Notes: generated by a model from the sequence alone, not told the origin. DNA of 64,000 nucleotides from Methanomassiliicoccales archaeon (GCA_040765825.1 JAXGRO010000001.1:46483-110482); one strand, 5' to 3'; shown: positions 35,296 through 57,752, numbered from the stretch's first letter. Program-made: numbers and translations.

Positions 35296-35302
35296 GTTCA
35301 TC

Positions 35303-38974: not shown

Positions 38975-39585
38975 CCCGGTTGAAGATATGCGGCCTGCGC
39001 GCCCTCCAGGACTTGGAGGCCTGCAGGGGGGCGGACTACCTGGGATTCGTGGTGCGGTCCGATTCGCCCCGCTGCCTTCCGCTGGAGAGGGCCGCGGAGC
39101 TGATGTCGGTGTGCGACGGGGTTCGGGTGGCGGTGACCACCGAGACCCGGGTGGAAGCACTTAGGTTGATCGTCAGGACCCTGGAACCGGACGTGATGCA
39201 GCTGCACTCGCCCCTCGATCCGGGCCTGCTGAAGGAGGTTTCGGATATGGGAGTGCCGGTCTGGGGGATGATGACGGTGCGTCCGGGGGTGCAGGTCGAG
39301 CCCTGCGCGGCGGAGCGCCTGGAAGCCATGGTGCTGGACAGCCCCGGGCCCCGGGCCGGAGGCAACGGCCGTGCCCACGATTGGAGCCTGAGCCGGAGGC
39401 TGCGGGAGGAGCTGGACCCTTTGCCGGTGGTGTTGGCCGGGGGAATAGGACCGCAGAACGCCCGGGAGGCCGTGGAGATTGTTTCGCCCTACGCCCTGGA
39501 CGTGTCCAGCGGGGTGGAGCGCGCCGGGGGCAAGGACCCCCTCATGGTGAGCGAGCTCATCAGAGCATTGAAAGGTGAGAATTGA
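38971..39585 (+). CDS. trpF: Phosphoribosylanthranilate isomerase
   Basis: It begins MTRLKICGL and has a PRAI-type barrel. It has an ATGA overlap with trpC. Confidence 0.88.
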
Positions 39586-41557: not shown

Positions 41558-41627
41558 TCCCCTGCCCCCAAGGCCCCGGATGACCCTCGGCGAATGTATT
41601 AATCGGGATGATGGGCTTCCCTCCCTC

Positions 41628-42906
41628 ATGGGCCTGAAGGCCGCGGGCGGTGGGAGATCGAGGGACAAGTATCACCGGCATGCCCGGCTCCTGTGGAACC
41701 GCTGGACCGTGCTCGGCATTCTGGCCCTCACCTACTTCCTGGTGTACTTCCACCGGGTATCCCCGGCGGTCCTGGCCGAGGTGCTAAGGGGAGCCTTCGG
41801 CGTCGGGCTGGCCTCCATCGCCGTGCTCAGCTCGGCGTACTTCTACGCCTACACCGTGATGCAGCTTCCCTGCGGCATCTCACCGACCGCTGGGGCCCCG
41901 GCACGGTGTGCGTTCACCGCCCTCTCGGCCCTGGGGGCCTTCGTCACCGCCCTGGCCGCCAGCTTCGAGATGGTGGTCCTGGGCAGGGTCATGATCGGCC
42001 TGGGAGTGGCCATGGTCTACGTTCCCACGTTGAAGGTGCTCTCGGCCTGGTTCCGCAGGGACGAGTTCAGCTCCCTCACCGGGCTTCTGCTGACCGTGGG
42101 CAACATCGGGGGGCTGGCCGCGGCCGGCCCTCTGGCGGCCATGTCCGAGTACGCCGGCTGGCAGAGGGTGTTCCTCGCGCTCGGGGTGCTGACCACTGGT
42201 GCTCACCTGGCTGATGTGGCTTCTGGTGCGGGACCGCCCGGAGGAGGTGGGCCTGCCCAGGGTGAGCGACGAGGAGGAGGGGCAGAGGATGCCGGTGCTG
42301 GCCTCCCTGCGCCTGATCTTCGGCTCGGGCATGCGCTGGCCCTATGCCGCGATCTTCTTCTTCATGTACGGAAGCCTGATGGTGTACCAGGGCTTGCTGG
42401 GCGGACCGTTCTTCCGGGACGTGCTGGGCTGGGACAAGGCCGCCTACGGGTTCTCCCTGACCTTCGTGGGCGTGGGGATGATCGCCGGCTGCCCGGTGGC
42501 GGGTTTCATATCCGACCGGGTGCTGCGCTCCCGGCGCAGGGTCGTGGTCATCGGGACCGCGGCCTTCGCGGTCATGTGGGGGGCGATCTGGATGACCGCG
42601 GGCCAGGTGCACGACCAGTGGGCCTACGTCATCCTGCATTTCACCTTCGGCTTCTTCGCCGGCTGGTACGTCCCGATATACGGGCAGGTCAAGGATTCCT
42701 TTCCCAGGGCGATGTCCGGTACCGCATTGGCCGCTCTGAACGTGTTCCCCTTCGCCGGGGCCGCGGTGCTGCAGTTGGCAGCCGGCAACATGGCCGCGGA
42801 CGGCGCTCTGGCGGACTACCGGTCGGTCTGGGCGCTGATGACCGCCGGGATGGTCGCGGCCTTCGTCCTGGCCGCGCTGTCGCGGGAGGATGGTCCGGCG
42901 CGGTGA
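41628..42906 (+). pseudogene. MFS transporter disrupted by frameshift(s)
   Basis: The N-terminal half is in the frame of ORF 41580..42935 up to ...VFLALGVLTT. The C-terminal half (VLTWLMWLLVRDRPEEVGLP... to 42906) is in ORF 42199..42906. One extra g lies at ~42198. Motif A (GILTDRWGPGTV) is readable only in a third frame between ~41879 and ~41909. Confidence 0.75.
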
Positions 42907-42969
42907 TTTGTATGGCGACCGAAACCGTCGCCTGAAGGCGAGCAATCGTTCGGATAGTGAAAATAGTTG

Positions 42970-43758
42970 CTACTGGTCCTCGACGCTGGAGACGAGCAGG
43001 TGGAGCATGGAGTCGGCGTGCGCGCGGTCCGGTACCAGGGACACCTTGACCCCGTACTCCTCCAGGCGCTCCCTGGTCTCCCGGCCCATGGCCGCCACGG
43101 CGACCCCTTCCAGCAGCATGAGTGCGTTCTCCTTGCCATCCCGCTCCTCCAGCTGCACCAGGAAGGCCTGGGCGTGCGCGGGCGTGGGGAAGGCCAGAAC
43201 ATCTATGCCACCGTCCTCCAGACGGTCAAGCAGCTCCTCCATCTCCTCCCCCTCGTCCACCAGCAGGGCGTACACCGAGACCTGCTCCACCTTCCAGCCC
43301 GTCGATTGAAGGTCCTTCACCATCAGAGGGGAACCCTGGTCCGAGCGCAGGAGGGCCACGGTTCCCCGGCGGGGCAGGCGGTTGATATGGCCGACCAGGG
43401 AATCGGTGGTGGCCTCCGGGGCCACCGATGCCACCCTCAGTCCGTGGTGGGTGGCGGCGGCCGAGGTGCGCTCGCCGATGACCACCATCTCCGTCCGGGA
43501 GACGGACTCCTTAAGCCGGTCCAGCATCTTGCGGCCCCTGGCCATGTGCACCATGGACTCGATGACCGTGGGGCAGGTGACCACCAGGACCTCGAAGCGC
43601 CCGGCGAACAGGTCCACCAGGAACAGGGAGAAGTTGGCGTCGTCAATGGGCTGGGCCCTTAACGGCGAGACGCATATGAAATCGGCCAGCTGCCGGTACG
43701 GCCGGCAAAGAGGCACCCACCTCTCCGGGGGGCCTAGTATGGCCACGACCTTCCTCAT
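42970..43758 (-). CDS. Uroporphyrinogen-III synthase-like protein (second, divergent HemD/HEM4 paralogue)
   Basis: 262 aa with a two-lobe HEM4-like pattern (VVTCPTVIES..., VVIGERTSAAA, ALLRSDQGSPLM, VYALL, AFPTPAHAQAF, AAMGRETRERL). It ends in TAG. Confidence 0.7.
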   Translation of the reverse strand: MRKVVAILGPPERWVPLCRPYRQLADFICVSPLRAQPIDDANFSLFLVDLFAGRFEVLVVTCPTVIESMVHMARGRKMLDRLKESVSRTEMVVIGERTSAAATHHGLRVASVAPEATTDSLVGHINRLPRRGTVALLRSDQGSPLMVKDLQSTGWKVEQVSVYALLVDEGEEMEELLDRLEDGGIDVLAFPTPAHAQAFLVQLEERDGKENALMLLEGVAVAAMGRETRERLEEYGVKVSLVPDRAHADSMLHLLVSSVEDQ

Positions 43759-43781
43759 GTCCCCTCGAAGCGCGCCTATGG

Positions 43782-44537
43782 TTAATTACTTTGCCTGAGG
43801 TGGCCGTCCACCGCCCTCAGCAGGTCCGGGAAGGTGGCCCTCTCCGCGGTCACCTGGACCGACATCCCCAGGGAGAGCAGCGTGTCCCTGGTCGGAGGTC
43901 CGATGGCCGCGTTAATGGCCTCCCATCTGAAATCCGGGCCGAAGAGCTCCGCGGCCCTGGCCACCGTCAACCTCGCGGACAGCGATGAGGTGTGCAGTAT
44001 TGCGTCCACCTTCCCGGACCGCAGCGCCCGCAGCGCCCGGTCCAGGGAATCCCCGCGATCCTCCCTGAGGGAGTAAATGGGCACCTCAAGGAATTCCCGG
44101 AGGCCGAGCAATCCCCTGCCCAGGACGTCGTTGCCCTGGTCCGATCTGAACATGAGCACGCTTCCCTCACCCCGGGAGAGCAGGTCCAGCAGCCCCTCGG
44201 AGGTGTACTCTTCGGGCAGGGAGACCTTCTGGACACCGAGCCTCTTCAGGGCGTCGGCGGTGGGCGGACCGATGGCCACGAGCTCCGTGCCCTGGGGAAC
44301 ATCATCGATGAGGCCCGGGTCGGCCCGCGAAAGGGCCTTCACCGCGGTGACGCTGGCGAACACCAGGGACGTGAAATGGCCCTGCCGCACATCGTTCAGC
44401 AATGCAGTGAGACCCGGCGGTCCGAGGTACTCCACCTCCACCACCGAGGCGCAGATGGCCTGGTGACCGGACGCCTCGACCAGGCGGCGCGACTCCTCCC
44501 AGCGGTCCTGGGGCCGCAGTACCAGCAGGGTGCTCAT
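43782..44537 (-). CDS. hemD: Uroporphyrinogen-III synthase
   Basis: 251 aa with the HEM4 pattern (LVFASVTAVKAL, VAIGPPTADAL, LMFRSDQGNDVL, IYSL, ILHTSSLSARL, AAIGPPTRDTL). It has an ATGA overlap with cobA. Confidence 0.8.
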   Translation of the reverse strand: MSTLLVLRPQDRWEESRRLVEASGHQAICASVVEVEYLGPPGLTALLNDVRQGHFTSLVFASVTAVKALSRADPGLIDDVPQGTELVAIGPPTADALKRLGVQKVSLPEEYTSEGLLDLLSRGEGSVLMFRSDQGNDVLGRGLLGLREFLEVPIYSLREDRGDSLDRALRALRSGKVDAILHTSSLSARLTVARAAELFGPDFRWEAINAAIGPPTRDTLLSLGMSVQVTAERATFPDLLRAVDGHLRQSN

Positions 44538-45277
44538 CGCAGGTCACCCAGCAAGGAGGCCATCTCCACCACCCGACCCACCACGATGACCGACGGGGCG
44601 CGCATCCCCTGTTGCCGGCAGTCCTCGCCGGCCCGGGAGACCGTGGTGATCAGGGACCTCTGCGATGCGCTGGAACCGTCCTGGACCACCGCCACCGGGG
44701 AATCGGGGTCCAGCCCGCCCTCCATCAGCCGCCTCATGTTCCTGTCGATGTTGGACATGCCCATCATGATCACCAGTGTGCCCCCGCTGCGGGCCAGCGC
44801 CGCCCAGTCCAGCCATTCCCCCTCCTTGTGGTCGCCCTCGTGCCCGGTGATGATGGTGACGGACGAGGACAGGGTGCGGTGGGTAACCGGCACTCCGGCC
44901 AGGGCCGGCACGGCTATGCTGGCGCTGACCCCGGGCACCACATGCACCTCCACACCGTGACGGCGCAGGTGCTCGGCCTCCTCGCCCCCCCGGCCGAACA
45001 GGAAGGGGTCCCCGCCCTTCAGCCTGACCACCATGCTCCCCTGATGGGCCTTTTCCAGCAGGATGCGGTTGATCTCCTCCTGTTCGGCCTTGTGGCCTCC
45101 GCCCCTCTTCCCCACGTCGAGCATCTCAGCATCGGGCGGGGCCTCCCGCAGCACCTTCTCCCCCACCAGTGAATCGTGTACCACCACCTCCGCGCTGCGC
45201 AGCAGCTCCAGTCCGCGCACGGTCATCAGCCCGGGGTCGCCCGGACCCGCTCCCACCAGGTATACAACCCCGGCCAT
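44534..45277 (-). CDS. cobA: Uroporphyrinogen-III C-methyltransferase (SUMT)
   Basis: VYLVGAGPGDPGLMT, GGDPFLFGRGGEE and VPGVSA are present. The start was trimmed to ATG 45277, overlapping the hemC stop by 1 nt. Confidence 0.9.
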   Translation of the reverse strand: MAGVVYLVGAGPGDPGLMTVRGLELLRSAEVVVHDSLVGEKVLREAPPDAEMLDVGKRGGGHKAEQEEINRILLEKAHQGSMVVRLKGGDPFLFGRGGEEAEHLRRHGVEVHVVPGVSASIAVPALAGVPVTHRTLSSSVTIITGHEGDHKEGEWLDWAALARSGGTLVIMMGMSNIDRNMRRLMEGGLDPDSPVAVVQDGSSASQRSLITTVSRAGEDCRQQGMRAPSVIVVGRVVEMASLLGDLR

Positions 45278-46146
45278 CAGCTCCACCCCCATTGACGCCT
45301 CATATCCTCGGCCACCCTCAGCACATCCTGTGCCCCCTGCAATCTGGCCTCATACCGCTTGGCCCATGAACCGTCCGGAGAGAGCCAGAGGCAGTGCAGC
45401 ATGATCGCCTCGCCCTCAGGGGAGGCCCAGATGCCCAGGGGGACCTGGCAGCTGGCCCCCAGCTCCAGCATAATCCCCCTCTCCACATCCACGCATCTCC
45501 GCGTCGGCAGATGGTCCAGCCGGGCGATGGCCCCGGCGCGTTCATCGCCCTCGCGGCAGACTAGCGCTATGGCCCCCTGCCCCGCCGGAGGCACCCAGAC
45601 CCCGGGGTCCAGAGCATGTCGGGGCACGTTCTCCCCCAGCCTCTCCAGTCCGGCCTCCGCCAGCACTATGGCGTGGTAATCCCCCCTGCGCCAGCGGTTG
45701 AGGCGGGTGGTGATGTTCCCGCGCAGCTCGGCCACCTCCAGGTCCGGCCGGAGATGCTTCAATAGGGCTTTGCGGCGCACGCTGGAGGTACCCACCACCG
45801 CCCCTTGCGGCAATGCGGACAGATCGGACCTGGACACCAGCACGTCCGCGGAGGGACCCCGGGGAAGGACCGCTGCCAGCATGGTCCCGGGCGTGAGCGC
45901 GGAGGGCATGTCCTTCAGGGAGTTCACCGCCAGGTCGATCTCCCCGGAGAGCAGCCTCTGGTCCAGCTCCTTGGTGAAAACACCGTACCCGCCCATGGCC
46001 TCCAGGGGGGTGCAGCGGTCCCGGTCCCCGCAGGTGGTGATGACCTTGATCTCCGGGGACAGGCCCTCCGGAAGGCCCCCGAGGGCCTCCAGGGCCAGAT
46101 CGGCCTGGGCCATGGCCAGGCGGCTCCCCCTGGTTCCCAGGATCAA
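45277..46146 (-). CDS. hemC: Porphobilinogen deaminase (hydroxymethylbilane synthase)
   Basis: It is the tail of track ORF 45277..47037. The sequence runs (M)ILGTRGSRLAMAQ...GNITTRL...GQGAIAL...ELGASCQVPLG. The TTG start at 46146 overlaps the hemL stop (TTGA). Confidence 0.9.
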   Translation of the reverse strand: MILGTRGSRLAMAQADLALEALGGLPEGLSPEIKVITTCGDRDRCTPLEAMGGYGVFTKELDQRLLSGEIDLAVNSLKDMPSALTPGTMLAAVLPRGPSADVLVSRSDLSALPQGAVVGTSSVRRKALLKHLRPDLEVAELRGNITTRLNRWRRGDYHAIVLAEAGLERLGENVPRHALDPGVWVPPAGQGAIALVCREGDERAGAIARLDHLPTRRCVDVERGIMLELGASCQVPLGIWASPEGEAIMLHCLWLSPDGSWAKRYEARLQGAQDVLRVAEDMRRQWGWS

Positions 46147-47423
46147 GCCATCCCCTCCAGGGCCTCTGAGAACGCCTGCGCGAGCATGCCCATCTCCCGG
46201 TCCCCGTGGGCCAGCGAAAGGAAGCAGGTCTCGAATTGGGAGGGGGGCATGCTCACCCCCAGTTCCAGCATGCTCCGGTAGAAGGACATGTACCTGGACC
46301 GGTCGCATTCCAGGACCTCCCTGGCGTTGCTCAGCGGCCCCCTGCCGAAGAATACCTGGAACATGGACCCCTCGCCCTGCACCTGGGCCTCGATGCCCAG
46401 CCGGGTTATTCCCCTGGAAAGTCGGCCGCGAAGCCGTTCGCCCCGGAGGTTGAGGTCCTGCAGACCCTCCGATTCCAGCACCTCCAGGGTCGCCAGCCCC
46501 GCGCTCAGGCTCATGGGGTTGCCGCTGTACGTTCCAGCCTGGTACACCCTGCCCAGCGGGGAGATGAGGGACATCATCTCCCTGGAGCCGCCGAAGGCAC
46601 CCATGGGCATGCCCCCGCCCAGCACCTTGCCCAGCACGGTCAGGTCCGGGCGAACGCCATAGAGCTCCTGGGCCCCTCCCAGGGAGAGTCGGAATCCGGT
46701 GATGACCTCGTCGAATATGAGCAATGAACCGTGAGAATCGGCCAGGCGGCGCACCTCCGCGAGGTACCCGGGGGAGGGCGGGACGGGGCCCACGTTCCCC
46801 AGCATGGGCTCCAGTATGATCGCGGCCACCTGACCCTTGTTGGCCCTCAGCGCCCCCTCCATCTGATCCGGGTCGTTGTAATCGACCACCAGAGTATGGG
46901 CGGCCACCTCCTCCAGCACCCCCGCAGAATCCGGGGAGCCGTGGGTCAGCGCCCCTGAGCCGGAGCGCACCAGCACGGCGTCGTGCGCACCGTGGAAGCC
47001 GCCGTCCACCTTTATGACCTTCTTGCGGCCGGTGCACCCGCGGGCCAGGCGCAGCGCGTGCATGGTGGCCTCGGTGCCGCTGCTCACGAAGCGCATCATC
47101 TCCATGCTCGGGAGGTGACCACGGACCTTCTCGGCCAGCAACACCTCCTTCTCGTGCGGCGCACCGTACAATGTGCCCAGGGCGGCCTGCTCCCGAAGAA
47201 CGCTGACGATGGCCGGATGGGCATGTCCCAGCAACATCGGCCCGTAGCCCAGCACCAGGTCCACGTACTCCCGGCCGTCGACGTCGACCACCATGGCCCC
47301 CCGCCCCTGTTCGATGTACAGGGGGAAGGGCTTCACCGCGCGCACCGGGGAGGACACCCCGCCGGGCATGAGGTCGACCGCCCTTGAGTATAGCTTCCTT
47401 GAGCGTTCGGTCAGTTCACTCAC
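46143..47423 (-). CDS. hemL: Glutamate-1-semialdehyde 2,1-aminomutase
   Basis: It shows the class-III aminotransferase pattern PGGVSSPVRA, FDEVITGFR and the lysine region VLGKVLGGG. The start is GTG. Confidence 0.95.
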   Translation of the reverse strand: MSELTERSRKLYSRAVDLMPGGVSSPVRAVKPFPLYIEQGRGAMVVDVDGREYVDLVLGYGPMLLGHAHPAIVSVLREQAALGTLYGAPHEKEVLLAEKVRGHLPSMEMMRFVSSGTEATMHALRLARGCTGRKKVIKVDGGFHGAHDAVLVRSGSGALTHGSPDSAGVLEEVAAHTLVVDYNDPDQMEGALRANKGQVAAIILEPMLGNVGPVPPSPGYLAEVRRLADSHGSLLIFDEVITGFRLSLGGAQELYGVRPDLTVLGKVLGGGMPMGAFGGSREMMSLISPLGRVYQAGTYSGNPMSLSAGLATLEVLESEGLQDLNLRGERLRGRLSRGITRLGIEAQVQGEGSMFQVFFGRGPLSNAREVLECDRSRYMSFYRSMLELGVSMPPSQFETCFLSLAHGDREMGMLAQAFSEALEGMA

Positions 47424-48369
47424 CTCGGAGAACGTTGGCGATGTCGGCGGCGAAGTATGATATGATGAGGTCCGCCCCCGCCCTGCGTATGCATTGCAGC
47501 GATTCCATGATGCCCGCCTTGAGGTCCAGGGCCCCCTGCGCCGCGGCGCACATGATCATGGCGTACTCGCCGCTCACCTGATAGGCGCAGATGGGCAGGT
47601 CGAACTCCTGATGGGCCCGGAATATCACGTCCAGGTAGGGCAGGGCAGGCTTGACCATCAGGATGTCCGCCCCCTCCTGCGCATCCGCCCTAAGCTCCCG
47701 GACGGCCTGCCGGGCGTTGCCTGGGTCCATCTGGTGGGAGCGGCGGTCGCCATGCGATGGGCAGCTGCCAACCATGTCCCGGAAGGGACCGTAGAAGCAT
47801 GAGGCGAACTTGGCCGAATAGGCCATTATCCCCGTGTCGATGAACCCTTCGGCGTCCAGGGCCTTCCGTATGGCCGCCACCTGCCCGTCCATCATGCCCG
47901 AGGGGGCCACCATATCCGCCCCGGCCCGGGCATGGGAGACGGCTATCCTTCCATATAGCTCCAGGGTGGGGTCGTTGAGCACCATGCCGCCCTCCAGCAC
48001 CCCGCAGTGTCCGTGGTCGGTGTACTCGCAAAGGCACAGGTCGGTGATGACCGGAAGATCGCAAGCATCCTTGACCTTCCTGATCGCCCTCTGCACCGCC
48101 CCCGGGGGGTTCCATGCCTCCGAACCCGTGGGATCCTTGCTGCACGGCACTCCGAACAGCAGCACCGCGCCAAGTCCGAGATTGCCCAGGCGAACGCATT
48201 CCCCGGCCACCTCGTCCAGGGGCAGCGCGAACTGCCCGGGAAGGGTGGACACCTCCCTCCGTTCACTGATGTTCTCGTCCACGAACACCGGTTGGATCAG
48301 CTGTCCGGGCCGCAGGGAGGTCTCCTGGAGCATCCTGCGCAGTTGCGGCGTGGTCCTAAGCCTTCTCAT
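47416..48369 (-). CDS. hemB: Porphobilinogen synthase (ALA dehydratase)
   Basis: It begins MRRLRTTPQLRRMLQETSL and has MVKPALPYLD (the active-site Lys) and YQVSGEYAM. ATG 48369 follows AGGAAAGG and lies inside the hemA 3' end. Confidence 0.9.
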   Translation of the reverse strand: MRRLRTTPQLRRMLQETSLRPGQLIQPVFVDENISERREVSTLPGQFALPLDEVAGECVRLGNLGLGAVLLFGVPCSKDPTGSEAWNPPGAVQRAIRKVKDACDLPVITDLCLCEYTDHGHCGVLEGGMVLNDPTLELYGRIAVSHARAGADMVAPSGMMDGQVAAIRKALDAEGFIDTGIMAYSAKFASCFYGPFRDMVGSCPSHGDRRSHQMDPGNARQAVRELRADAQEGADILMVKPALPYLDVIFRAHQEFDLPICAYQVSGEYAMIMCAAAQGALDLKAGIMESLQCIRRAGADLIISYFAADIANVLRGE

Positions 48370-49626
48370 CCTTTCCTGCGGGTACGTCCTGCACCACCTC
48401 CAATGCGAATATCTCCTTGGTACTGCGCAGCAGTCCACCATCACCCTGCCTGCTGGCGATCTTGACCGCGGCTGTGGGATCGGCCAGGAAGCGGCTCATC
48501 AGGGATGAGGCCAGAGCCTCCAGCACCTCCTCGGCGGATTCCCCTGCCTTCAGCCGGTTCAGGGCCTTGCCCACCTCCCGGGCCTTCATGCCCTCGTACT
48601 TGATGTAGACCAGCCGGAGGATCTCCGCGGCCCTCATCTCGTCCAACCGGCGGGAGAGCAGGTCCAGCTCGTCCTTTACCACCCGTTCGGCGTTGAAGAC
48701 CTCCATCCTGCGCCTCTCCAGGTTCTCCCTGGCCACCTCGTTCAAGGCCGACAGGTCGCAGAGTTGCACTCCCGGTATGGAGCGCACGGCCTGGTCCACG
48801 TTGCGCGGGAAGGAGACGTCGATTATGAACATGCCCCGACCCGAACGTCGCTCCATGGCCGGGGATATCTCCTTGAGTCCCAGGATGTTGTGGGTGGCCG
48901 AGGTGGCGCAGAGAACCACGTCGGCCTTGACCAGATAGTCATGGAGATGCTCGAAGCGCACCGCCTTCCCGTCCAGCGACCAGGCCAGCTCCACCGCCCG
49001 TGCATAGGTGCGGTTGGAGACGAAGACCGCCTCCGGCCCCTTCCCGGCCAGATGCTTGGCGATCAGGGAGGCCATCTGTCCGGCCCCCACCACCAGGACG
49101 GTCTTGCCCTTCAGGTCCCCCATGCGGGATTCGGCCAGGTCCACCGCGGCCGAGCCGATCGATACATTGCCCTTGTTCACCCGGGTCTCGGTTCGCACCC
49201 TCTTTCCGGTGTTGAGGGCTTTGCGGAACACCTCGCCCATCAGCGGACCGCAGCACCCCTCGCGGCAGGAGAGCTCGAAGGCCTCCTTTACCTGGGACTG
49301 GATCTGGTCCTCACCCACGATCATGGATTCCAGCCCCGAGGCCACCCGCAGGAGATGATGCAGGGTCTCCTTTCCAGCCATGTACCGGACCAGACTGCCC
49401 TGGGCCTCGTAGGGGAGAAGCGATGCCACAAGGCCCTCCAGCCCCTCGCGTGCCGCCTCCCTTTCCCGGGACACCAGGTAGAACTCACCCGGTTGCAGGT
49501 CTTGAGCACCGCGCACTCGCCACCTGGGCGGTGCGCATCTCTGAAGAATGGCCGCGGCGTCCATCTGCCCCAGCTGCCCCAGGTCCTGGATACGGAGTCC
49601 TTGTGCTTGATGTGCGCGCTGAGCAA
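48356..49626 (-). pseudogene. hemA: Glutamyl-tRNA reductase with 5' region broken by three apparent 1-nt indels (or sequence errors)
   Basis: The body frame (48356..49564) carries GLESMIVGEDQIQSQV, the NADPH site VVGAGQMA and the dimerisation helix. The catalytic motif LKTCNRV is encoded only in the other frame (ORF 49321..49626, TTG start 7 nt after the sirC stop). EFYLV follows it in the body frame. Confidence 0.8.
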
Positions 49627-49633
49627 AAGAACG

Positions 49634-50218
49634 TCATTTGACCGCCTCCTTGGCGATCTCCCGTACCTCGTCTTGATCGCGGGCCAATGCCTCCCAGACG
49701 TGCCTGTTCTCCAGCATACGCCGGATACGCCCCTCCCTATCAGCTGGATCGGGGAATGTCTCCCTCAGCTCCTCCCTCAGCCTCTCGCTGAGGTCCACCA
49801 TGTCCTCGATGGAAGCGGACAGATCCCTCTCCAGCAGCAGACGGATGTACCTGGACATGCCAGGGCTACGACCCAGTGTGGACACTGCGATGGTGTAATT
49901 GCGTTTCTCCACCACCGAGGGAATGAGGAAATCACCTGGGCGGTCGGACCTGTTGCATGGCTTTCCCTGGACCCTTGCGCGTTCGAATATGACATCGTCG
50001 GTCGAGGTGTCTCCGGTGGCGGCCACCACGAGGTCCGTCCCGCCGATCAGGTGAAGGTTATCGAGGACCTCCCCTCTGATGAAGCGGATGCCTGCAGGGA
50101 CCTCGCACGGCTGCCGGTCCACGATAACGACATCGGCCTCCTTGAAGAGGTACAAGGCCTTGCGCATGCCCACTAGCCCGGCGCCGAAGACCACCGCCTT
50201 CCTCCCTCTGAGATCCAT
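49634..50218 (-). CDS. sirC: Precorrin-2 dehydrogenase / sirohydrochlorin-forming enzyme (SirC, CysG-N/Met8-like)
   Basis: 194 aa with the Rossmann motif KAVVFGAGLVGMRK, followed by the SirC-type C-terminal helical domain. Confidence 0.8.
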   Translation of the reverse strand: MDLRGRKAVVFGAGLVGMRKALYLFKEADVVIVDRQPCEVPAGIRFIRGEVLDNLHLIGGTDLVVAATGDTSTDDVIFERARVQGKPCNRSDRPGDFLIPSVVEKRNYTIAVSTLGRSPGMSRYIRLLLERDLSASIEDMVDLSERLREELRETFPDPADREGRIRRMLENRHVWEALARDQDEVREIAKEAVK

Positions 50219-50293
50219 GAACAGGGGTAACAGCTAGACCACTCGGACCCCCACATATCTTAGCGTAATAAAAATGCTTCTATTTTTAATATG

Positions 50294-50320
50294 AATAACA
50301 TTCATATAATTAATGTTATT
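50294..50320. promoter_or_regulatory. Perfect 9-bp inverted repeat centred in sirC/cfbA divergent control region
   Basis: The repeat is AATAACATT-catataatt-AATGTTATT. It lies between the TATA-like element for sirC (rc of ~50262-50275) and the one for cfbA (taatatttat, ~50336-50346). Confidence 0.45.
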
Positions 50321-50380
50321 TTTAGATTCAATAGTAATATTTATCAAGTCCTTGGAATATCGGCATGCAAGGTGGTTCTG

Positions 50381-50770
50381 ATGAAGAACGGAGTATTGGT
50401 AGTGGGACATGGAAGCAAGATGGAGCACAACATGGGACTGGTGGTCAGCATGGCCAAGAGACTTCAGGAGAAGGGCGAGTTCGGACCGGTGGAGGCCGCG
50501 TTCATGCAGCTGAACGATCCGGACATACCCACTGGGCTGGCCAACGTGGCCGCCAGGGGCGCGGACATTATCTACGTGGTGCCCTGCTTCCTGGCCACGG
50601 GCATACACACCACCGAGGACATCCCGGGCGTGTTGGGGTTCTCCAAGGGGCAGCGCTCCGGAAAGGTCAAGGCGGGAGGGCGCACCGTGGAGGTCCGCTA
50701 CTGCCAGCCAATGGGTGACGACGCCCGCCTGGCGGAGATACTGGCCGACCGGGTCAAGGCCGAGATGTGA
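50381..50770 (+). CDS. cfbA: Sirohydrochlorin nickelochelatase / small CbiX(S)-type chelatase
   Basis: 129 aa from ATG 50381 (AAGGTGG upstream). LVVGHGSK and PCFLATGIHTTEDIP are the class II chelatase His motifs. Confidence 0.85.
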   Translation: MKNGVLVVGHGSKMEHNMGLVVSMAKRLQEKGEFGPVEAAFMQLNDPDIPTGLANVAARGADIIYVVPCFLATGIHTTEDIPGVLGFSKGQRSGKVKAGGRTVEVRYCQPMGDDARLAEILADRVKAEM

Positions 50771-50772
50771 AC

Positions 50773-52056
50773 ATGAAGGTGCTCGTACTGGACCTCACCC
50801 ATGGTGGGGAGGTCCTGGCCCGGGAGTACCTGCGCCGCGGGAACCAAGTCACTGCGGTGGACATCTATCGAACTGCCGTGGAGACCGCACGATGCCTTTC
50901 CGCTGAGGGAGTGCGTATCCTTCCGGCGGCGCCGGACGAGCGGTTCGATCTTGCGGTGGCTCCCGTGCATTCACCGGACCGTTTCATCGGGAAGGCCTTG
51001 GCCGATCGAAAGCTCACCCATCATCAGGCCGTGGGTGAACTGGCCAGCTTCCCGTATCCGGTGGTGGAGGTCACCGGGGTCAGGGGTAAGACCGGCACCG
51101 TGCGCGTGCTCTCATTCCTGATGGCCTCGATGGGCAGGAGGGTGTTGTGCCTGAGCAGCTCGGGACTGAGCCGGTACGATGGTGAGGAGACGGTGCTGGA
51201 GGACAAGGTCAGCATTGCCCCTCCCACCTTGCTCAGGCTGTCCTCCTCGCCAACGGACGTGGACCTCGGCGTCTTCGAGGTCAGCCTGGGAGGCACCGGG
51301 ATCGGGAAGGTCTCGGTGATAACCGGCCTGCAGGAGAATTATCCCATCGCGGCCGGTACGCGCCGGGCCTTCGACGGAAAATCGCAGATGGCCGAATCGG
51401 CCCGGGATGTCCTGATCATCCCCAAGGGTGAGGAGGAGACCTGGAGGCCCCTGGCCCGGAGATGCCGGCGGATGGTGACCTTCGGCAAGGGCGGCGATGT
51501 GGAGGCGGAGGTGTCGAACGCGGCACTGGGCTCCCCTTCCCTGCTCACCGTGCGCACTGGGCGGGGAGAGAGGGAGGTCCCCCTGCAGCCGTCGTTCCTG
51601 CCTGATGCTTACACCCTGGCCTTCTCCTGCGCCCTGGCCGCGGCCGAGGGATTGGGCAGCGACCCGCTGGAAATTTGCCCGTCGTTGAGCGGCTTTCCGG
51701 GCGCCAGAGGAAGGGCCGAGGTCCTTGTGGACGAACGGGGGGAGATGGTCAGGGAACGCAACCCCGGGGTGTGCACCGCCTCCTTGGACTTCATCATTGA
51801 CCGCATGGTCCGAGAACACGGGTGCCGGGACATCGGACTGGTGCTCGATCCTGTGAACATGAAGGTGTGCGAGAAGCTGGACCTGGAACGGATGGCGGAG
51901 ATGTGCGAGCGGCATCCCCAGGTCACCGGGAGGTACATTCTTCCCAGTGGGATGCGGGAAGGCGGTTCACAGCTCTTCGAGCCCGTTGGTAACGTGGACG
52001 AGGTCCGGACGCGCCACCGCACCGTGCTGTGGGCCACCAAGGAGGGATACCTTTGA
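50773..52056 (+). CDS. cfbE: Coenzyme F430 synthetase (Mur-ligase-like)
   Basis: It begins MKVLVLDLTHGG and has the P-loop VTGVRGKTGT, with Mur-ligase-like central and C-terminal domains. GTG 50767, overlapping the cfbA stop, is an alternative start. Confidence 0.85.
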   Translation: MKVLVLDLTHGGEVLAREYLRRGNQVTAVDIYRTAVETARCLSAEGVRILPAAPDERFDLAVAPVHSPDRFIGKALADRKLTHHQAVGELASFPYPVVEVTGVRGKTGTVRVLSFLMASMGRRVLCLSSSGLSRYDGEETVLEDKVSIAPPTLLRLSSSPTDVDLGVFEVSLGGTGIGKVSVITGLQENYPIAAGTRRAFDGKSQMAESARDVLIIPKGEEETWRPLARRCRRMVTFGKGGDVEAEVSNAALGSPSLLTVRTGRGEREVPLQPSFLPDAYTLAFSCALAAAEGLGSDPLEICPSLSGFPGARGRAEVLVDERGEMVRERNPGVCTASLDFIIDRMVREHGCRDIGLVLDPVNMKVCEKLDLERMAEMCERHPQVTGRYILPSGMREGGSQLFEPVGNVDEVRTRHRTVLWATKEGYL

Positions 52057-53135
52057 GCGATGTGCTGCACCCCCGGCCGAACCCCATAGTTGCCGCCATG
52101 TACACCCTGCGGGACATGGACGCCGAGGTGATCGTGGTGCACGGTCCCGCCGGATGCGGATTCATGGTCTCCAGGCGATTGGAGGACGCCGGGGTCCGCG
52201 TTGTCACCACGGGCATGAAGGAGAACGATCTGATATTCGGGGCCGAGGAGAAGCTGGCGGAAACGCTTCGTCTGGTGCAGGACCGTTTCTCCCCGGGCCT
52301 GGTGGGGGTCGTGGGGACCTGCGCCAGCATGATAATCGGCGAGAACCTGGACCGGGCGGTGCAGAAGGCCGGGCTCAAGGCCAAGGTCATCCCGGTCGAC
52401 GTGCACGGCTGTTCGGGGGCCAACACCACCGGGGCCATAAGGGCCCTGGAGGTGGCCGCTGAGAGGGGGGTGATCCCGCAGGAGGAGATGTTCCGCCAGA
52501 GGGAGATGCTGACCCGGGCCACCCTGCTGGAGAGCAACCGGGGGCTGACCAGCAAGGAGCACCTGTCACCGAACTACGGGGTCACCAAGTACTCGGCCGC
52601 GAGACGCATCAGGGACGTCCTGGCCACAGGGGGACGGGTCCTGGTGGTTCTGAACGGCAAGAAGGAGCTGGCCTACGGGCATGCCGACGTGCTGCGGGGG
52701 GTGCAGGAGAGCGCGGACGCCCTGGGCGGAGAGGCCGTCTTCGTGGGCAACCTGGACCCGAACGTGGGATTGCCGCGCATCCGTCGTTACGCTCGGGAAA
52801 TACTGAGGGACCTGGAGTGCGCCGGGGTGTCCCTGGAACGTGACACCGGTGGGCTGGACGAGTACCCCGTGGCGGGGATCAGGGCCGCGGAGGCGGTAAG
52901 CGAGATCGACCACGATCTGCTGGTGGCCTGCGGCATTGTGCATGCCATACCGAACCTTGACCGCAGGGCGGTGCTGGTCTCCGACCAGCCGCGGGAGGTG
53001 GACAATTACCTTCGTGACGGTTATGCCATGGTGGTCTCCGAACCGGACATCCACCCCCGGGTCATGGGAGCCTCGGGGATCATCAGGATGGAGCTGGCGG
53101 ACACCCTGCGCGAGATGGCCGCGGAGGGGAAATGA
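52053..53135 (+). CDS. cfbD: Ni-sirohydrochlorin a,c-diamide reductive cyclase, NifD/BchN-like subunit (NflD)
   Basis: HGPAGCG and VGTCASMIIGENL are nitrogenase-component-1-like. The TTG start at 52053 follows AAGGAGGGA and overlaps the cfbE stop. Confidence 0.85.
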   Translation: MSDVLHPRPNPIVAAMYTLRDMDAEVIVVHGPAGCGFMVSRRLEDAGVRVVTTGMKENDLIFGAEEKLAETLRLVQDRFSPGLVGVVGTCASMIIGENLDRAVQKAGLKAKVIPVDVHGCSGANTTGAIRALEVAAERGVIPQEEMFRQREMLTRATLLESNRGLTSKEHLSPNYGVTKYSAARRIRDVLATGGRVLVVLNGKKELAYGHADVLRGVQESADALGGEAVFVGNLDPNVGLPRIRRYAREILRDLECAGVSLERDTGGLDEYPVAGIRAAEAVSEIDHDLLVACGIVHAIPNLDRRAVLVSDQPREVDNYLRDGYAMVVSEPDIHPRVMGASGIIRMELADTLREMAAEGK

Positions 53136-53923
53136 GGCAGATAGCAATCTACGGGAAGGGCGGCATCGGAAAATCCACGGTGGCCGCCAATGTGGTGGCC
53201 AGCATGGCCGAGTCCGGCCTTCGCGTATGGTACGTGGGCTGCGACCCCAAGGCCGACGGTTCCATGACCCTGCTGGGCGGAAGGAAGATGGAAACATTCC
53301 TGGACCGCATGAAGGATGGCGGGCCCGGGGAATACGAGGTGGGATTGGGCTTCCAAGGGGCCATGTGCATGGAGGTCGGAGGCCCTCTGGCGGGCGTGGG
53401 CTGCGCCGGCCGGGGGATTATTGTTGCACTGCAGGCCCTGAAGAGGGACCACTTCCGGGACCCTCCGGACGTGGTGCTCTACGACGTCCCAGGGGACGTG
53501 GTCTGCGGTGGCTTCGCCACCCCGGTGCGCCAGGGGTTCGCGGACGAGGTGTACGTGGTCACCTCCGGAGAGTACCTGTCCCTGTACGCCGCCAACAACA
53601 TATGCCGGGGGATGCGCAACCTGGGGGTGGGAGTGGGCGGCCTGATCTGCAACTCCAGGGAAGTGATGAACGAGAGGGAGGCTGTGGCCTCGGTGGCGGG
53701 AAGGCTGGGCACCAAGATGCTGGGATTCGTGCCCCGGCACCGTTCCGTGCGGGACTGCGAGAACGCCGGCCGAACGGTGGTCGAGGGGGCGCCCGATTCC
53801 GAGCAGGCCCGGGCCTACCGGGAGCTGGCGGCCGCCATGCTCTCCAATTCCAGCTTCGCCGTGCCCCAGCCAATCGACCCCGCGGAGCTGCGATCGATGC
53901 TTAAGGAGCTGACCGCGGAATGA
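53132..53923 (+). CDS. cfbC: Ni-sirohydrochlorin a,c-diamide reductive cyclase, NifH-like ATPase subunit (NflH)
   Basis: IYGKGGIGKSTV, GCDPKADG and the cluster Cys residues GVGCAGRG...CGGF are present. It has an ATGA overlap with cfbD. Confidence 0.9.
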   Translation: MRQIAIYGKGGIGKSTVAANVVASMAESGLRVWYVGCDPKADGSMTLLGGRKMETFLDRMKDGGPGEYEVGLGFQGAMCMEVGGPLAGVGCAGRGIIVALQALKRDHFRDPPDVVLYDVPGDVVCGGFATPVRQGFADEVYVVTSGEYLSLYAANNICRGMRNLGVGVGGLICNSREVMNEREAVASVAGRLGTKMLGFVPRHRSVRDCENAGRTVVEGAPDSEQARAYRELAAAMLSNSSFAVPQPIDPAELRSMLKELTAE

Positions 53924-55245
53924 GGAGGGTGGTACTGGCCGGCTCGGGCAGCGGGGTGGGGAAGACCAGCATCGCCGCCGGGCTCATGCTGCGCCTGGGT
54001 GACGGGGTCCAGCCCTTCAAGGTCGGGCCGGACTTCATCGACCCCATGTTCCATTCCCTGGCCACCGGGCGCCCCTCCAGGAACCTGGACACGTTCATGA
54101 TGGACCCTGAGGTGATGGTGGAGCACTTCCGCTGGGCCTGCCGGGACGCGGACATGGCCCTGGTGGAGGGAGTGCGGGGGCTGTATGACGGCCTCACCTC
54201 CACCGAGGACGTGGGGAGCACCGCGGAGATAGCCAAGCTGCTGGACGCGCCGGTGGTGCTGGTGATCAACGCCCGCAGCCTGGCCAAGAGCGCTGCGGCG
54301 GTCGCGCTCGGATTCAAGAATCTGGACCCCCGGGTGCGGGTGGCCGGGGTCATCCTGAACAACGTGAGCGGGGAACGGCATCGGCGCAAGGCCACGGAGG
54401 CCGTGGAGCAGCTGGCAAAGCTGCCGGTGCTGGGAGCGGTGGAGCGGGGAAGGTCCCTTCCGGAAAGGCATCTCGGACTGCTCACCGTGGAGGAGCACGG
54501 GGACCGGGAAAGGCTCAAGGACGAACTGCGGGGGATGGTTGAGGACATCGATCTGGAGATGCTGAGGGAGATCGCCGAGACCTCTGGACCGATGGAGCCG
54601 CGCCGGGAGCCGCTCTTCCCCCGCGGGGACTCCGGGGCCAAGGTGGCCGTGCCCATGGACCGCTCGTTCTGCTTTTACTACCGGGAGAACCTGGAGGCCC
54701 TGGAGATGGCCGGGGCCGAGCTGCGTTACTTCCGCCCTGAGGAGGGCCAGGGCCTTCCGGACGCGGACCTGTACTATCTGGGCGGGGGGTATCCGGAGGC
54801 ACATATGGAGGAGATATCGGCCAACAGGGACTTCCTGGAGGGGCTGGGGAACGCCGCTGACGACCGGGCCATCTACGCGGAGTGCGGGGGGCTCATGATC
54901 CTGTGCTCGGCCATAGAGGCCGGCGGACGGGCGGAGATGGCCGGGGTGTTCCCCTGCGAGGCGCATCTGACCCCCGAGCGCCAGGGGCTCTCGTACGTCC
55001 GGGCGGCGGGCACCGCGCACAACCCCTTCTTCCCCGGGATCGAGGTGAGGGGGCATGAGTTCCACTACTCCCGCCTGGTTCCCCTCCCAGCCGGCCCCTT
55101 CGGTTTCGATGTGAGCAGGGGCACGGGCATAGACGGCCGCCACGACGGCATGGTGCGGGGGAAGGTGCTGGGAAGCTACCTGCATATGCACGCCCTCTCC
55201 CGCCTGGACTGGGGGAAAAGGCTTCTGGATGCGGCCCTGAGCTGA
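53920..55245 (+). CDS. cfbB: Ni-sirohydrochlorin a,c-diamide synthase (CbiA/CobB family amidotransferase)
   Basis: It has GSGSGVGKTS and the PDFIDP region. The C-terminal GATase has the nucleophile ECGGLMIL. It has an ATGA overlap with cfbC. Confidence 0.9.
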   Translation: MRRVVLAGSGSGVGKTSIAAGLMLRLGDGVQPFKVGPDFIDPMFHSLATGRPSRNLDTFMMDPEVMVEHFRWACRDADMALVEGVRGLYDGLTSTEDVGSTAEIAKLLDAPVVLVINARSLAKSAAAVALGFKNLDPRVRVAGVILNNVSGERHRRKATEAVEQLAKLPVLGAVERGRSLPERHLGLLTVEEHGDRERLKDELRGMVEDIDLEMLREIAETSGPMEPRREPLFPRGDSGAKVAVPMDRSFCFYYRENLEALEMAGAELRYFRPEEGQGLPDADLYYLGGGYPEAHMEEISANRDFLEGLGNAADDRAIYAECGGLMILCSAIEAGGRAEMAGVFPCEAHLTPERQGLSYVRAAGTAHNPFFPGIEVRGHEFHYSRLVPLPAGPFGFDVSRGTGIDGRHDGMVRGKVLGSYLHMHALSRLDWGKRLLDAALS

Positions 55246-55281: not shown

Positions 55282-55707
55282 ATGCCCATCGGAGACCCCA
55301 TGGGGGCGGAGGCCCCCCTGCAAGAGAAGGGAAGGCTCACCCGGGTTTGGATGGCCACGGTGCCGGTGAGGGACCTGAACGCGGCCCTGGAGTTCTACAC
55401 CGTGCGGCTCGGGCTGGAGGTCCGGAGGAGGGATGACCGCTGGGCGGACCTGGGGCCCTCGGAACCGATGGGGAAGGTCGCGCTGTACGTGCCGTTGGCC
55501 GATGAGCCCAGGCAGCCCGGGGGACCCACGGGAGTGGTGTTCTCCTGCGACAGCATGTACGATGTCCACCGGGTGCTGGTGGACGAGGGTGTGATCTTCA
55601 AGCTAAAGCCGGAGCGGCAGCCCTGGGGCGGCCTCCTGGCCATCTTCCTGGACCAGGACGGCAACGAGCTGATGGTCCTGGAACACCCTGAACGGTACAA
55701 ACGATGA
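55282..55707 (+). CDS. VOC (glyoxalase/bleomycin-resistance/dioxygenase) family protein
   Basis: 141 aa. VPVRDLNAALEFYTVRLGLEV ... PWGGLLAIFLDQDGNELMVLE is a typical single VOC module. It starts 36 nt after cfbB. Confidence 0.75.
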   Translation: MPIGDPMGAEAPLQEKGRLTRVWMATVPVRDLNAALEFYTVRLGLEVRRRDDRWADLGPSEPMGKVALYVPLADEPRQPGGPTGVVFSCDSMYDVHRVLVDEGVIFKLKPERQPWGGLLAIFLDQDGNELMVLEHPERYKR

Positions 55708-55757: not shown

Positions 55758-56525
55758 ATGCTGGAGATCGAGAACCTTACCGTGGAGGTGGGCGGCCGGG
55801 AGATACTGCACGACCTGTCGCTCAACGTCATGACCGGATACACCACCGTGCTCTTCGGGCCCAACGGCTCGGGGAAGTCCACCCTGCTCATGACCATAAT
55901 GGGCTTTTCCGGGTACAAGGTGAAGAGCGGGAGGATCATCCTCAATGGGGAGGACATCACCCACCTGCCGGTGAACGAGAGGGCCAAGAGGGGCATCGGC
56001 ATGATGATGCAGAGGCCGCCGAACCTCACCGGGGTGCGGCTGAAGGACCTGGTGAGGGTCACCAGCAAGGGGAATGTGGACACTGAGAAGGTGGCCGAGG
56101 ATCTGGACATGACCCGCTTCCTGGAGAGGGATGTGAACGTGGGCTTCTCCGGCGGGGAGATCAAGCGCTCGGAGATACTGCAGCTGACGGCCCAGAACCC
56201 CTGCATGATCCTGCTGGACGAGCCGGAGAGCGGGGTGGACATGGTCTCCATCGAGAAGCTGGGCTCCAAGGTGCACGACCTGCTGCAGGGGCCCTCGCAC
56301 TGCGCCGGGTGGCGGGAGAAGAGCGGTAAGGCGGCCCTCATCATCACCCACACCGGGCAGATACTGGATTACGTGGAGGCCGATCGAGGCTACGTGATGT
56401 GCAACGGCACGGTGGCCTGCTCCGGGAACCCCCGCGAGCTGCTGCAGGAGATACGCAAGATGGGCTACAACGAGTGCATCCGCTGCAAGATCAACCGCGC
56501 GAACATCATCAAGGAGAACATCTGA
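55758..56525 (+). CDS. sufC: Fe-S cluster assembly ATPase SufC
   Basis: GPNGSGKSTL, FSGGEIKRSEILQL and ILLDEPESGVD are present. GGGGGGAGAGGAG serves as the SD. Confidence 0.9.
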   Translation: MLEIENLTVEVGGREILHDLSLNVMTGYTTVLFGPNGSGKSTLLMTIMGFSGYKVKSGRIILNGEDITHLPVNERAKRGIGMMMQRPPNLTGVRLKDLVRVTSKGNVDTEKVAEDLDMTRFLERDVNVGFSGGEIKRSEILQLTAQNPCMILLDEPESGVDMVSIEKLGSKVHDLLQGPSHCAGWREKSGKAALIITHTGQILDYVEADRGYVMCNGTVACSGNPRELLQEIRKMGYNECIRCKINRANIIKENI

Positions 56526-56534: not shown

Positions 56535-57752
56535 ATGGTCAGCAACGATGAGAAGAGGGCCAAGGAAGCCCTGAAGAAGCAGGCCAAGTTCGGAGAGGAC
56601 ATCGACCTGGAGGAGTACGATGAGGGCAGCCGGGACCTCTCGGAGCTGGAGTCCCTGGAGGATCTGCCGGGCGAGACCAAGAGCACCATGCTGGATTCTG
56701 GCATTGTGCCATCAGAGAAGGGCAAGTCCGGCAACTTCCTGCTGATGGACAACACCGTGGTGCACTCCGCGGTCATGGGCAGCGGCGTCGAGGTGATGCC
56801 CCTCAGCCAGGCGCTGAAGGTGCACGACTGGCTCAAGAATTACATGTGGAAGGGCGTGCAGCCCGATTCCGACAAGTACACCGCGGAGACCTACCTGCAG
56901 AGGGCCGACGGGTACTTCATACGGGCGCTCCCTGGCGCCAAGGTCAGGATGCCGGTGCAGACCTGCCTCCTGCTCAAGAATCGCAACACCAAGCAGTACG
57001 TGCACAACGTGCTGATAGCCGAGGAGGGCTCGGAGTTCGAGGTGGTCACCGGCTGCGCCACCTCCAAGGGGGTGGAGAAGGGGCTGCACCTGGGGATATC
57101 GGAGTTCTTCCTGAAGAAGGACTCCAAGCTGACGTTCACCATGGTGCACAACTGGTCGGAGTTCGTTGGCGTCCGTCCACGCAGCAGCATCGTCATGGAG
57201 GAGGGGTCCACCTACATCAACAACTACGTGGCGCTCAAGCCGGTCAAGACCATCCAGACCTATCCCACGGCCTACCTGAACGGCCCGAACGCGGTCTGCC
57301 GCTTCAATTCCGTGGCCGTGGCCCACCCGGGAAGCATGATGGACATGGGCTCCCGAGCGGTGCTGAACGCCCCGGGATGCAAGGCCGAGCTGATCTCCCG
57401 CACCATCACCACCGGCGGAACGGTCATCGCCCGCGGTCAGCTGGTCGGGAACTCCCCGGGCATCAAGGCCCACCTGGAGTGCAAGGGGCTCATCCTCAGC
57501 GAGAAGGGGGTGCAGATAGCCATCCCCGAGCTGGAGGCGCGCATCCCGGACGTGGAGATGACCCACGAGGCCGCCGTGGGCAAGATCGCCCAGGACCAGG
57601 TGGAGTACCTGATGTCCCGCGGGCTCTCCGAGGACGAGGCCGTGGGCATGATCGTCCGCGGCTTCCTGGACGTGGGCATACGCGGCATACCGGACCATCT
57701 GAAGGCCGAGATAGACAAGATCCTGCAGGAGACCGACGTCCGCGGCTCCTGA
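56535..57752 (+). CDS. sufB: Fe-S cluster assembly scaffold SufB/SufD family
   Basis: 405 aa with SufBD beta-helix repeats and the C-terminal HEAAVGKI...YLMSRGL motif. Confidence 0.9.
   Translation: MVSNDEKRAKEALKKQAKFGEDIDLEEYDEGSRDLSELESLEDLPGETKSTMLDSGIVPSEKGKSGNFLLMDNTVVHSAVMGSGVEVMPLSQALKVHDWLKNYMWKGVQPDSDKYTAETYLQRADGYFIRALPGAKVRMPVQTCLLLKNRNTKQYVHNVLIAEEGSEFEVVTGCATSKGVEKGLHLGISEFFLKKDSKLTFTMVHNWSEFVGVRPRSSIVMEEGSTYINNYVALKPVKTIQTYPTAYLNGPNAVCRFNSVAVAHPGSMMDMGSRAVLNAPGCKAELISRTITTGGTVIARGQLVGNSPGIKAHLECKGLILSEKGVQIAIPELEARIPDVEMTHEAAVGKIAQDQVEYLMSRGLSEDEAVGMIVRGFLDVGIRGIPDHLKAEIDKILQETDVRGS

Follow-up and report, generated by a model that had tools for sequence, protein, structure and literature searches.

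A 64,000-nucleotide stretch of DNA from a Methanomassiliicoccales archaeon (GCA_040765825.1, JAXGRO010000001.1:46483-110482; hereafter the window) carries thirteen tightly packed tetrapyrrole genes between positions 42970 and 55245, arranged as two runs that diverge from one spacer. We read this locus, with a probability of about 85%, as the standard tetrapyrrole supercluster of the Methanomassiliicoccaceae, in which a shared trunk operon and a divergent nickel-branch operon would start at separate promoters within a single 162-bp AT-rich spacer. The trunk operon, sirC-hemA-hemB-hemL-hemC-cobA-hemD-hemD', would provide the enzymes that lead from glutamyl-tRNA to sirohydrochlorin, and the nickel-branch operon, cfbA-cfbE-cfbD-cfbC-cfbB, those that turn sirohydrochlorin into coenzyme F430 along the established route CfbA, CfbB, CfbCD and CfbE (reviewed in PMC7242693, PMC13474568). 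We envision that the trunk feeds all cellular tetrapyrrole branches (F430, cobamide and siroheme) and not F430 alone, and that the nickel-branch operon perhaps runs on into a glyoxalase-fold gene and sufCB. The operon structure, promoter positions and enzyme activities described here are predictions from sequence. By the taxonomy of its homologues, the host is a Methanomassiliicoccaceae archaeon.

Gene identities and order could be read with little ambiguity, as the GC content of the window is 61-68% with a strong third-position GC bias and the true reading frames are easy to pick. Open reading frames and family profile matches reproduced the gene content, order and coordinates of an initial annotation of this DNA, hemA excepted. 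Its junctions were likewise recovered with its own choice of starts (+7, -14, -8, -4, -1, -4 and +23 nt in the trunk run; +2, -4, -4 and -4 nt in the cfb run), as was its AT-rich spacer of 162 bp. The enzyme assignments it proposed hold on profile scores, structure matches for CfbA, motifs and a comparison of CfbB with a CbiA paralogue. Its view of the host as a methanogen also stands, the nearest CfbD and HemA homologues all belonging to the Methanomassiliicoccales, a methanogen order. Its claim that every step from glutamyl-tRNA is encoded fails on the sequence as given, where hemA is disrupted in frame.

Within the trunk, hemL, hemB, hemC, the uroporphyrinogen-III C-methyltransferase gene (cobA/SUMT, with an alternative start at 45277) and the precorrin-2 dehydrogenase gene (sirC) all pass curated cut-offs with near full-length profile alignments (Table 1). 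Both HEM4-family genes are full length yet below the equivalog cut-offs. The first, hemD1, is 35% identical to the single HemD of Methanomassiliicoccus luminyensis and, in a neighbour-joining tree, is the positional orthologue of the single-copy gene that adjoins cobA in other genomes. The second, hemD2 (hemD'), shares 25% identity with hemD1 and 30% with the M. luminyensis protein; it forms a long-branch clade of its own and occurs only in the clade of the window (L006, L010, L013, L014, L090; loci and assemblies are cited by L number).

The initial annotation had proposed profile searches for CfbA-E as a check, and CfbA, CfbE and CfbD pass the corresponding models, while CfbC and CfbB find theirs as best model at scores below the cut-off. 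At 129 aa, CfbA falls in the small (about 13 kDa) CbiX-type class II chelatases; its best solved relatives are the Methanocaldococcus jannaschii CfbA structures 6m2a and 6m25, and the catalytic histidines are present in GHGS and GIHT. The CfbE match spans positions 1-374 of the 430 in the NF033197 profile and includes a GVRGKTG P-loop of the Mur-ligase type, and only faint matches to Mur ligases and cyanophycin synthetase were returned from the PDB. CfbD is clearly set apart from nitrogenase and chlorophyllide-reductase subunits, scoring 396 bits on TIGR03282 and at most 51 bits on all Nif and Bch models (NifD/E/K, BchN/B), with Cys35, Cys90 and Cys120 invariant in 15 homologues.

The same layout recurs across the family. 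Among the best 80 species-representative Methanomassiliicoccales loci of a tblastn survey, 24 place sirC on the opposite strand upstream of cfbA, with a spacer of 158-457 bp in 18 of them and inserts of 1.4-6.3 kb in the other six; at the best of the species-representative genomes, CfbD is 86% identical to that of the window. Since the divergent layout is found in these 24 of 80 loci and in M. luminyensis B10, it is a family trait of the Methanomassiliicoccaceae, and because the gene order recurs in dozens of independent genomes, it is far beyond chance. At two of the 80 loci (L032, L034), the hem operon lies directly upstream of cfbA in the same direction. Methanomethylophilaceae-type loci (L038-L089) follow another order, cfbC-cfbA-cfbA-cfbE-cfbD-cfbB, where cfbA is present in two tandem or fused copies, or in four (L075 and L078), and mostly have no hem genes within 10 kb; four exceptions carry them upstream (L062, L068) or downstream (L080, L081). 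Our genome-contig scan returned Methanomassiliicoccales only, and for synteny in other methanogen orders we relied on the literature, according to which Methanosarcina has its cfb genes in a cluster, whereas those of M. jannaschii and many other methanogens are scattered (PMC7242693, PMC13474568). The initial annotation had called the consolidation unusual, on the premise that hem genes are usually dispersed in methanogens. The premise holds only in part: set against model methanogens the locus does stand out, whereas within the Methanomassiliicoccales lineage, where 24 of the 80 loci and M. luminyensis B10 share the layout, it is nothing unusual. Our literature search found no explicit published description of the hem-cfb linkage, though it is plain in annotated public genomes.

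Comparison with individual systems defines what is common and what is particular to the window. The cultured type strain M. luminyensis B10 (GCA_000308215.1, CAJE01000012.1; L008) carries these genes in identical order on each strand, sirC...hemD diverging from cfbA...cfbB, with proteins 46-62% identical to those of the window. It differs in having one hemD instead of two, a longer spacer (about 1.2 kb, against 162 bp), no glyoxalase-sufCB genes directly after cfbB, and the palindrome TTGGATG-N3-CATCCAA about 65 nt upstream of sirC, a candidate operator that the window spacer does not have. Much closer are PtaB.Bin134 (an NCBI metagenome-assembled genome, MVPZ01000107.1, L090) and the run assemblies L091-L095, which are 96.6-98% identical in nucleotides over window positions 42977-52681; their spacer is identical to that of the window and both hemD copies are present, but their hemA is intact (429 aa) where that of the window is disrupted.

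Methanosarcina (Zheng et al. 2016; Moore et al. 2017; as reviewed in PMC7242693, PMC13474568) and the anaerobic methanotrophic (ANME) group 2a (table in PMC12622379) have cfb clusters with the same five enzymes as the window, and consecutive ANME-2a loci also share its cfbA-cfbE-cfbD-cfbC order (PMC12622379). In both, the hem genes lie elsewhere, whereas in the window they stand beside cfb; Methanosarcina keeps them in two further clusters, one joining hemA/L/B/C to the gene for precorrin-2 dehydrogenase and one pairing hemD with that for SUMT (PMC3004389). Compared with the archaeal early-tetrapyrrole clusters that include SUMT and precorrin-2 dehydrogenase genes (Storbeck et al. 2010, PMC3004389), the window cluster is without ahb/nir-like haem genes and adds a second hemD paralogue and a cfb operon directly opposite.

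Synteny breakpoints coincide exactly with hem and cfb operon edges (42970-42977 and 50258-50279) among genomes 96-98% identical in DNA (L090, L004, L096, L009). On the left flank, the window has an MFS gene and a trp operon, whereas PtaB.Bin134, like L006, has Peripla_BP_2/FecCD/ABC transporter genes. Contig L009 ends within the spacer, and in L096 the hem genes are 91% identical to those of the window up to 49518, with sirC sharply divergent beyond.

Table 1. Positions of the tetrapyrrole genes, downstream genes and putative spacer elements in the window
Feature	Position	Strand	Basis
sirC, precorrin-2 dehydrogenase; first trunk gene	49634-50218	-	TIGR01470, 72.9 bits, cut-off 62.3
hemA, glutamyl-tRNA reductase, frame-disrupted	48356-49637; main reading frame 48356-49564	-	TIGR01035, 322.9 bits
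hemB, porphobilinogen synthase	47416-48369	-	NF006762, 459.6 bits, cut-off 297
hemL, glutamate-1-semialdehyde 2,1-aminomutase	46143-47423	-	TIGR00713, 539 bits, cut-off 527
hemC, hydroxymethylbilane synthase	45277-46146	-	TIGR00212, 288.6 bits, cut-off 164
cobA/SUMT, uroporphyrinogen-III C-methyltransferase	44534-45292	-	TIGR01469, 302.6 bits, cut-off 185
hemD (hemD1)	43782-44537	-	NF004587, E 7e-33, full length
hemD' (hemD2); last trunk gene	42970-43758	-	NCBIfam HEM4/uroporphyrinogen-III synthase models, best E 1.3e-28
cfbA, small CbiX-type sirohydrochlorin nickelochelatase	50381-50770	+	NF033198, 130.6 bits, cut-off 120
cfbE, Mur-ligase-like F430 synthetase	50767/50773-52056 (GTG 50767, ATG 50773)	+	NF033197, 259.2 bits, cut-off 250
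cfbD, methanogenesis marker 13, NifD/BchN-like catalytic subunit	52053-53135	+	TIGR03282, 395.7 bits, cut-off 268.4
cfbC, NifH-like ATP-dependent reductase subunit	53132-53923	+	best model NF033200, 333.5 bits, below cut-off 402
cfbB, Ni-sirohydrochlorin a,c-diamide synthase	53920-55245	+	best model NF033195, 479.7 bits, below cut-off 560
TATA-like element TTTTTATTA	about 52 nt before sirC ATG	-	putative, by position
TATA-like element ATATTTATC	about 40 nt before cfbA ATG	+	putative, by position
Shine-Dalgarno-like AAGGTG, precedes cfbA	50369-50374		putative
glyoxalase-fold gene	55282-55707	+	Pfam
sufC	55758-56525	+	Pfam
sufB/D	56535-57752	+	Pfam

Several points weigh against reading the locus as a complete, two-promoter supercluster. 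As given, hemA cannot yield a working glutamyl-tRNA reductase, the first committed enzyme. Neither CfbC nor CfbB reaches the 'exception' cut-off curated by NCBI, and both are assigned by best model plus context. The TATA elements and transcription starts are guesses, and a scan for sigma-70 promoters and intrinsic terminators returned nothing usable, these being bacterial models that are uninformative here. Finally, no mcr gene was found within the 64-kb window, taxonomy being the basis for supposing that the host uses F430.

Taken as continuous by the initial annotation, hemA runs from 49626 to 48356, which is 1271 nt and not a multiple of three. Its main open reading frame of 402 codons starts at 49564 and aligns to TIGR01035 from profile position 85 onward only; two N-terminal motifs, LLSAHIKHK and ECAVLKTCNRV, are encoded in another frame, which puts the catalytic cysteine (in the TCNR of the latter motif) out of frame. 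A HemA search found a 96%-identical protein of 429 aa in PtaB.Bin134 and a dozen other contigs, and all 13 encode an intact gene. A DNA comparison of four of the 13 with the window, over up to 9.7 kb, gave 96.6-98% identity. Relative to the intact genes of L090-L094 the window is short of 8 nt, and all eight gap positions of the 9.7-kb alignment (49485, 49517, 49522 (two), 49532, 49540, 49593 and 49627) are confined to the first ~150 nt of hemA. Five more distant relatives are likewise intact across this region. Searched for as an exact protein, SirC of the window matched no record, and CfbC matched contigs of 2-3 kb only.

We consider a local consensus or assembly error the probable cause, ahead of a genuine pseudogene. 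Six deletion events with extra substitutions are limited to these first ~150 nt, and two further window genes, for an MFS transporter (~42200) and a double-Usp protein (~21730), are likewise split between frames, as one might see in a strain that had lost glutamyl-tRNA reductase, needed external 5-aminolevulinate or tetrapyrroles, and whose cluster was starting to decay. Such a loss strikes us as doubtful, given that the other 1.1 kb of hemA shows no damage, nor does any other hem gene, and that codon-position GC is normal throughout these. Pseudogene decay would not place six independent indels within 150 nt and leave the rest of the alignment (9.5 kb) without any, and all 13 contigs with a near-identical HemA have kept the gene whole. 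Across a 12.9-kb comparison with L004, just two indels were found, both intergenic and none coding. The lesion patch also coincides with a population recombination breakpoint, where L096 homology stops at 49518 and errors in a mixed-strain consensus are plausible. The patch was also considered as a chimera with an L096-type haplotype; this was ruled out, the deviant bases not being L096-like.

The spacer between the two runs (50219-50380) has a GC content of 33%, is the sole AT-rich island between 42.5 and 55.6 kb, and has within it the 60 nt of lowest GC (0.12) anywhere in the 64 kb. A single AT-rich island between two packed runs would fit two divergent polycistronic units. For comparison we took the spacers of five relatives with CfbD identities of 79-87%. 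They share with the window an 85-bp core (50264-50348), whose identity to the window sequence is 81-92%, with a mean of 88% over all pairs, compared with 39-69% at third codon positions (sirC, cfbA, cfbD, cfbC, hemB) and 46-81% at the spacer edges; the core is conserved like a first or second codon position, in a clade where synonymous sites are near saturation. Because it is conserved so far above synonymous sites, we infer that the core holds functional promoter or regulatory elements and is under purifying selection. The two putative TATA boxes, which lie towards either edge and at plausible distances from the two ATGs, leave an inner ~50 bp of the core unaccounted for.

Discrete elements within the spacer proved harder to define. 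No conserved palindrome was identified in the 85-bp core of the window and its relatives. The spacer palindromes TATGAAT-AAC-ATTCATA and AATAACATT/AATGTTATT were rejected as operators, not being conserved in L006, L010 and L012-L014, and a 5-bp hairpin over the cfbA Shine-Dalgarno sequence of the window is not conserved in L010. More can be drawn from the L004 variant, where the sirC-proximal half of the spacer is replaced and the cfbA-proximal half is retained, homology to the window resuming mid-spacer at 50279. Since only the cfbA-side half is kept, this arrangement argues for two separable promoter modules.

The M. luminyensis-like clade shows a different feature just upstream of cfbA. A short GC-rich hairpin (for example, GACCGC-N4-GCGGTC) lies ahead of a conserved GTGACAAAGGGGATTTCGAA motif, about 60 nt before the cfbA ATG (L008:8284-8346, L016, L017, L019-L023, L032, L034, L058). 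The stem shows some compensatory changes (GACCGG/CCGGTC, AACCGC/GCGGTT, CATGCC/GGCATG), and RNAalifold lends it modest support (6 pairs, of which 2 have double changes). The window's clade conserves no comparable hairpin.

The initial annotation had taken the locus for a single bidirectional unit and predicted co-regulation of precursor supply and nickel-tetrapyrrole finishing. On this reading the unit would be dedicated to F430, with a control element in the spacer that both operons share and that couples the two processes. We find this rather unlikely. All pathway genes are adjacent and diverge from a single spacer, whose core is conserved well above neutral and has about 50 bp of interior beyond the two TATA boxes, as such a unit would lead one to expect. 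Against this, the trunk product has other uses. Sirohydrochlorin is also the branch point to cobamide and siroheme (PMC13474568), so that the supply line is a shared one. Among the window's own genes are ones for a methyltransferase-type corrinoid protein (1555-2190) and a CobA/CobO-type corrinoid adenosyltransferase (33376-33900). The methyl-reducing methanogens of this lineage depend also on corrinoid proteins.

More telling still is the L004/L096 contig (two JGI samples), about 96% identical to the window from cfb into the downstream region, where an 8.9-kb block, made up of cbi genes and a corrinoid-type ABC transporter, separates sirC from cfbA; there, the run divergent from the hem operon combines cbi and cfb. 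This cbi block indicates that the trunk operon is shared and serves more than F430, and the claim of a dedicated supply line is not supported. Co-regulation, as it was stated, fares no better: the same close relative keeps only the cfbA-side half of the spacer, the short spacer palindromes are not conserved among the closest relatives, and the candidate operator found at these genes in sister lineages is missing.

That operator deserves separate description. A count over 1.49 Mb of Methanomassiliicoccales loci gave 64 copies of the 17-bp palindrome TGGAT[AG]-N3-[CT]ATCCA, where block shuffles predict 7.3. The palindrome is found about 55-80 nt upstream of sirC in many Methanomassiliicoccaceae, M. 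luminyensis included, about 55 nt upstream of cfbC in Methanomethylophilaceae, and also upstream of cbiT, cbiM, cbiL, cbiD and corrinoid-type ABC transporter genes (example sites are L008:7222, L016:8178, L096:9322, L076:4 and L079:1320, with many other loci besides). We regard it as a candidate operator of a tetrapyrrole/corrinoid regulon. Its presence at the heads of hem, cbi and cfb operons in sister lineages argues that coordinated tetrapyrrole control exists in the order, and to that extent speaks for the coupling proposed in the initial annotation. Within the window's own hem/cfb spacer, however, the TGGATG-N3-CATCCA operator is absent even at 3 mismatches, and the palindrome is likewise absent from the closest clade. 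Two weaker copies (ATGGAT-N5-ATCCAT, 2258-2274 and 2289-2305) lie in the window upstream of the corrinoid-protein gene (ATG at 2190). Rodionov and co-workers reportedly predicted, in 2003, a 'CBL-box' for a hypothetical archaeal B12 regulator; a literature search on the operator sequence and 'CBL-box' returned nothing relevant. Tentatively, and with the odds against it, the 85-bp core could instead bind a lineage-specific regulator that replaces the 17-bp operator and sets the split of flux between trunk and nickel branch.

The two sub-cut-off assignments remain to be weighed. CfbC carries the P-loop GKGGIGKS and Cys91/Cys125 in CAGRG and VCGGF contexts, scores 169.7 bits on BchL, and its gene overlaps cfbD by 4 nt; CfbB has the GATase cysteine and scores 457 and 440 bits on CobB models. 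The cbi-linked amidase of L004 scores best on CobB/CbiA, whereas its cfb-linked paralogue (42% identical to the first) and the window protein score best on CfbB; this split in preference supports the CfbB assignment. That cfbC, cfbD, cfbB and cfbE instead act in another nitrogenase-like or corrin pathway is very improbable: it could appeal to the narrow leads of the CfbC model over NifH (333.5 against 311.7 bits, a difference of 22) and of the CfbB model over CobB (479.7 against 456.6), both below cut-off, but CfbD, CfbE and CfbA clear curated equivalog cut-offs, the order cfbA-E-D-C equals that of the ANME-2a cluster table (PMC12622379), a separate CbiA paralogue stands in the cbi context of a close relative, and there is no adjoining nifDK-like partner.

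Downstream of cfbB, the order cfbB-glyoxalase-sufC-sufB is conserved in L004, L006, L009, L010, L013 and L014, and no strong AT island is met until 57759. Because the order is conserved in the closest clade and such an island is lacking, the plus-strand unit may reach as far as 57752. Further downstream, about 5.7 kb from cfbB (60936-62105), a gene for an Mrp/NUBPL-type P-loop ATPase (ParA family) is directly followed by a gene for a 109-aa Nitro_FeMo-Co protein (NifX/NifB-C-terminal family), a pair conserved in L004 and L006; a NifX-family protein was speculated in a 2025 paper to shuttle F430 in ANME-2a (PMC12622379).

On the other side, a complete trp operon occupies 35267-41557 (trpE 35267-36610, trpB 39582-40757, trpA to 41557), with trpG, D, C and F between trpE and trpB assigned from coding-frame segmentation only. 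It starts at a strongly AT-rich promoter island (35209-35323) and ends beside the MFS transporter gene (41580-42935), which abuts hemD'. This gene is frameshifted near 42196-42204, MFS_1 (Pfam) positions 1-164 lying in one frame (41580 onward) and 164-345 in another (42199-42906). The double-Usp protein (21457-22469, minus strand) is apparently frame-split near 21730, with one Usp domain in reading frame 21627-22469 and the second in the overlapping frame 21457-22293. Rfam at gathering thresholds gave no match in the window, where tRNA-His is the only tRNA.

The pathway, its enzymes and the arrangement already stand in public annotated genomes, including that of a cultured type strain, and the value of the locus as a discovery is small. 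Its use lies elsewhere: with 12-13 genes in 12.3 kb, it is a compact, complete template for heterologous F430 production and for annotating the pathway in metagenome-assembled genomes of the Methanomassiliicoccales. Little is known about cfb regulation in archaea, according to a 2026 review (PMC13474568), and the spacer core and the relatives' operator are concrete DNA targets for this open question, the candidate protein-binding DNA being the 85-bp core (50264-50348) and TTGGATGTATCATCCAA. The natural variants (divergent, co-directional and with a cbi-block insert) show shuffling of trunk and branch operons at a promoter-sized breakpoint. If the core does bind a regulator of its own, it would define an archaeal tetrapyrrole regulon.

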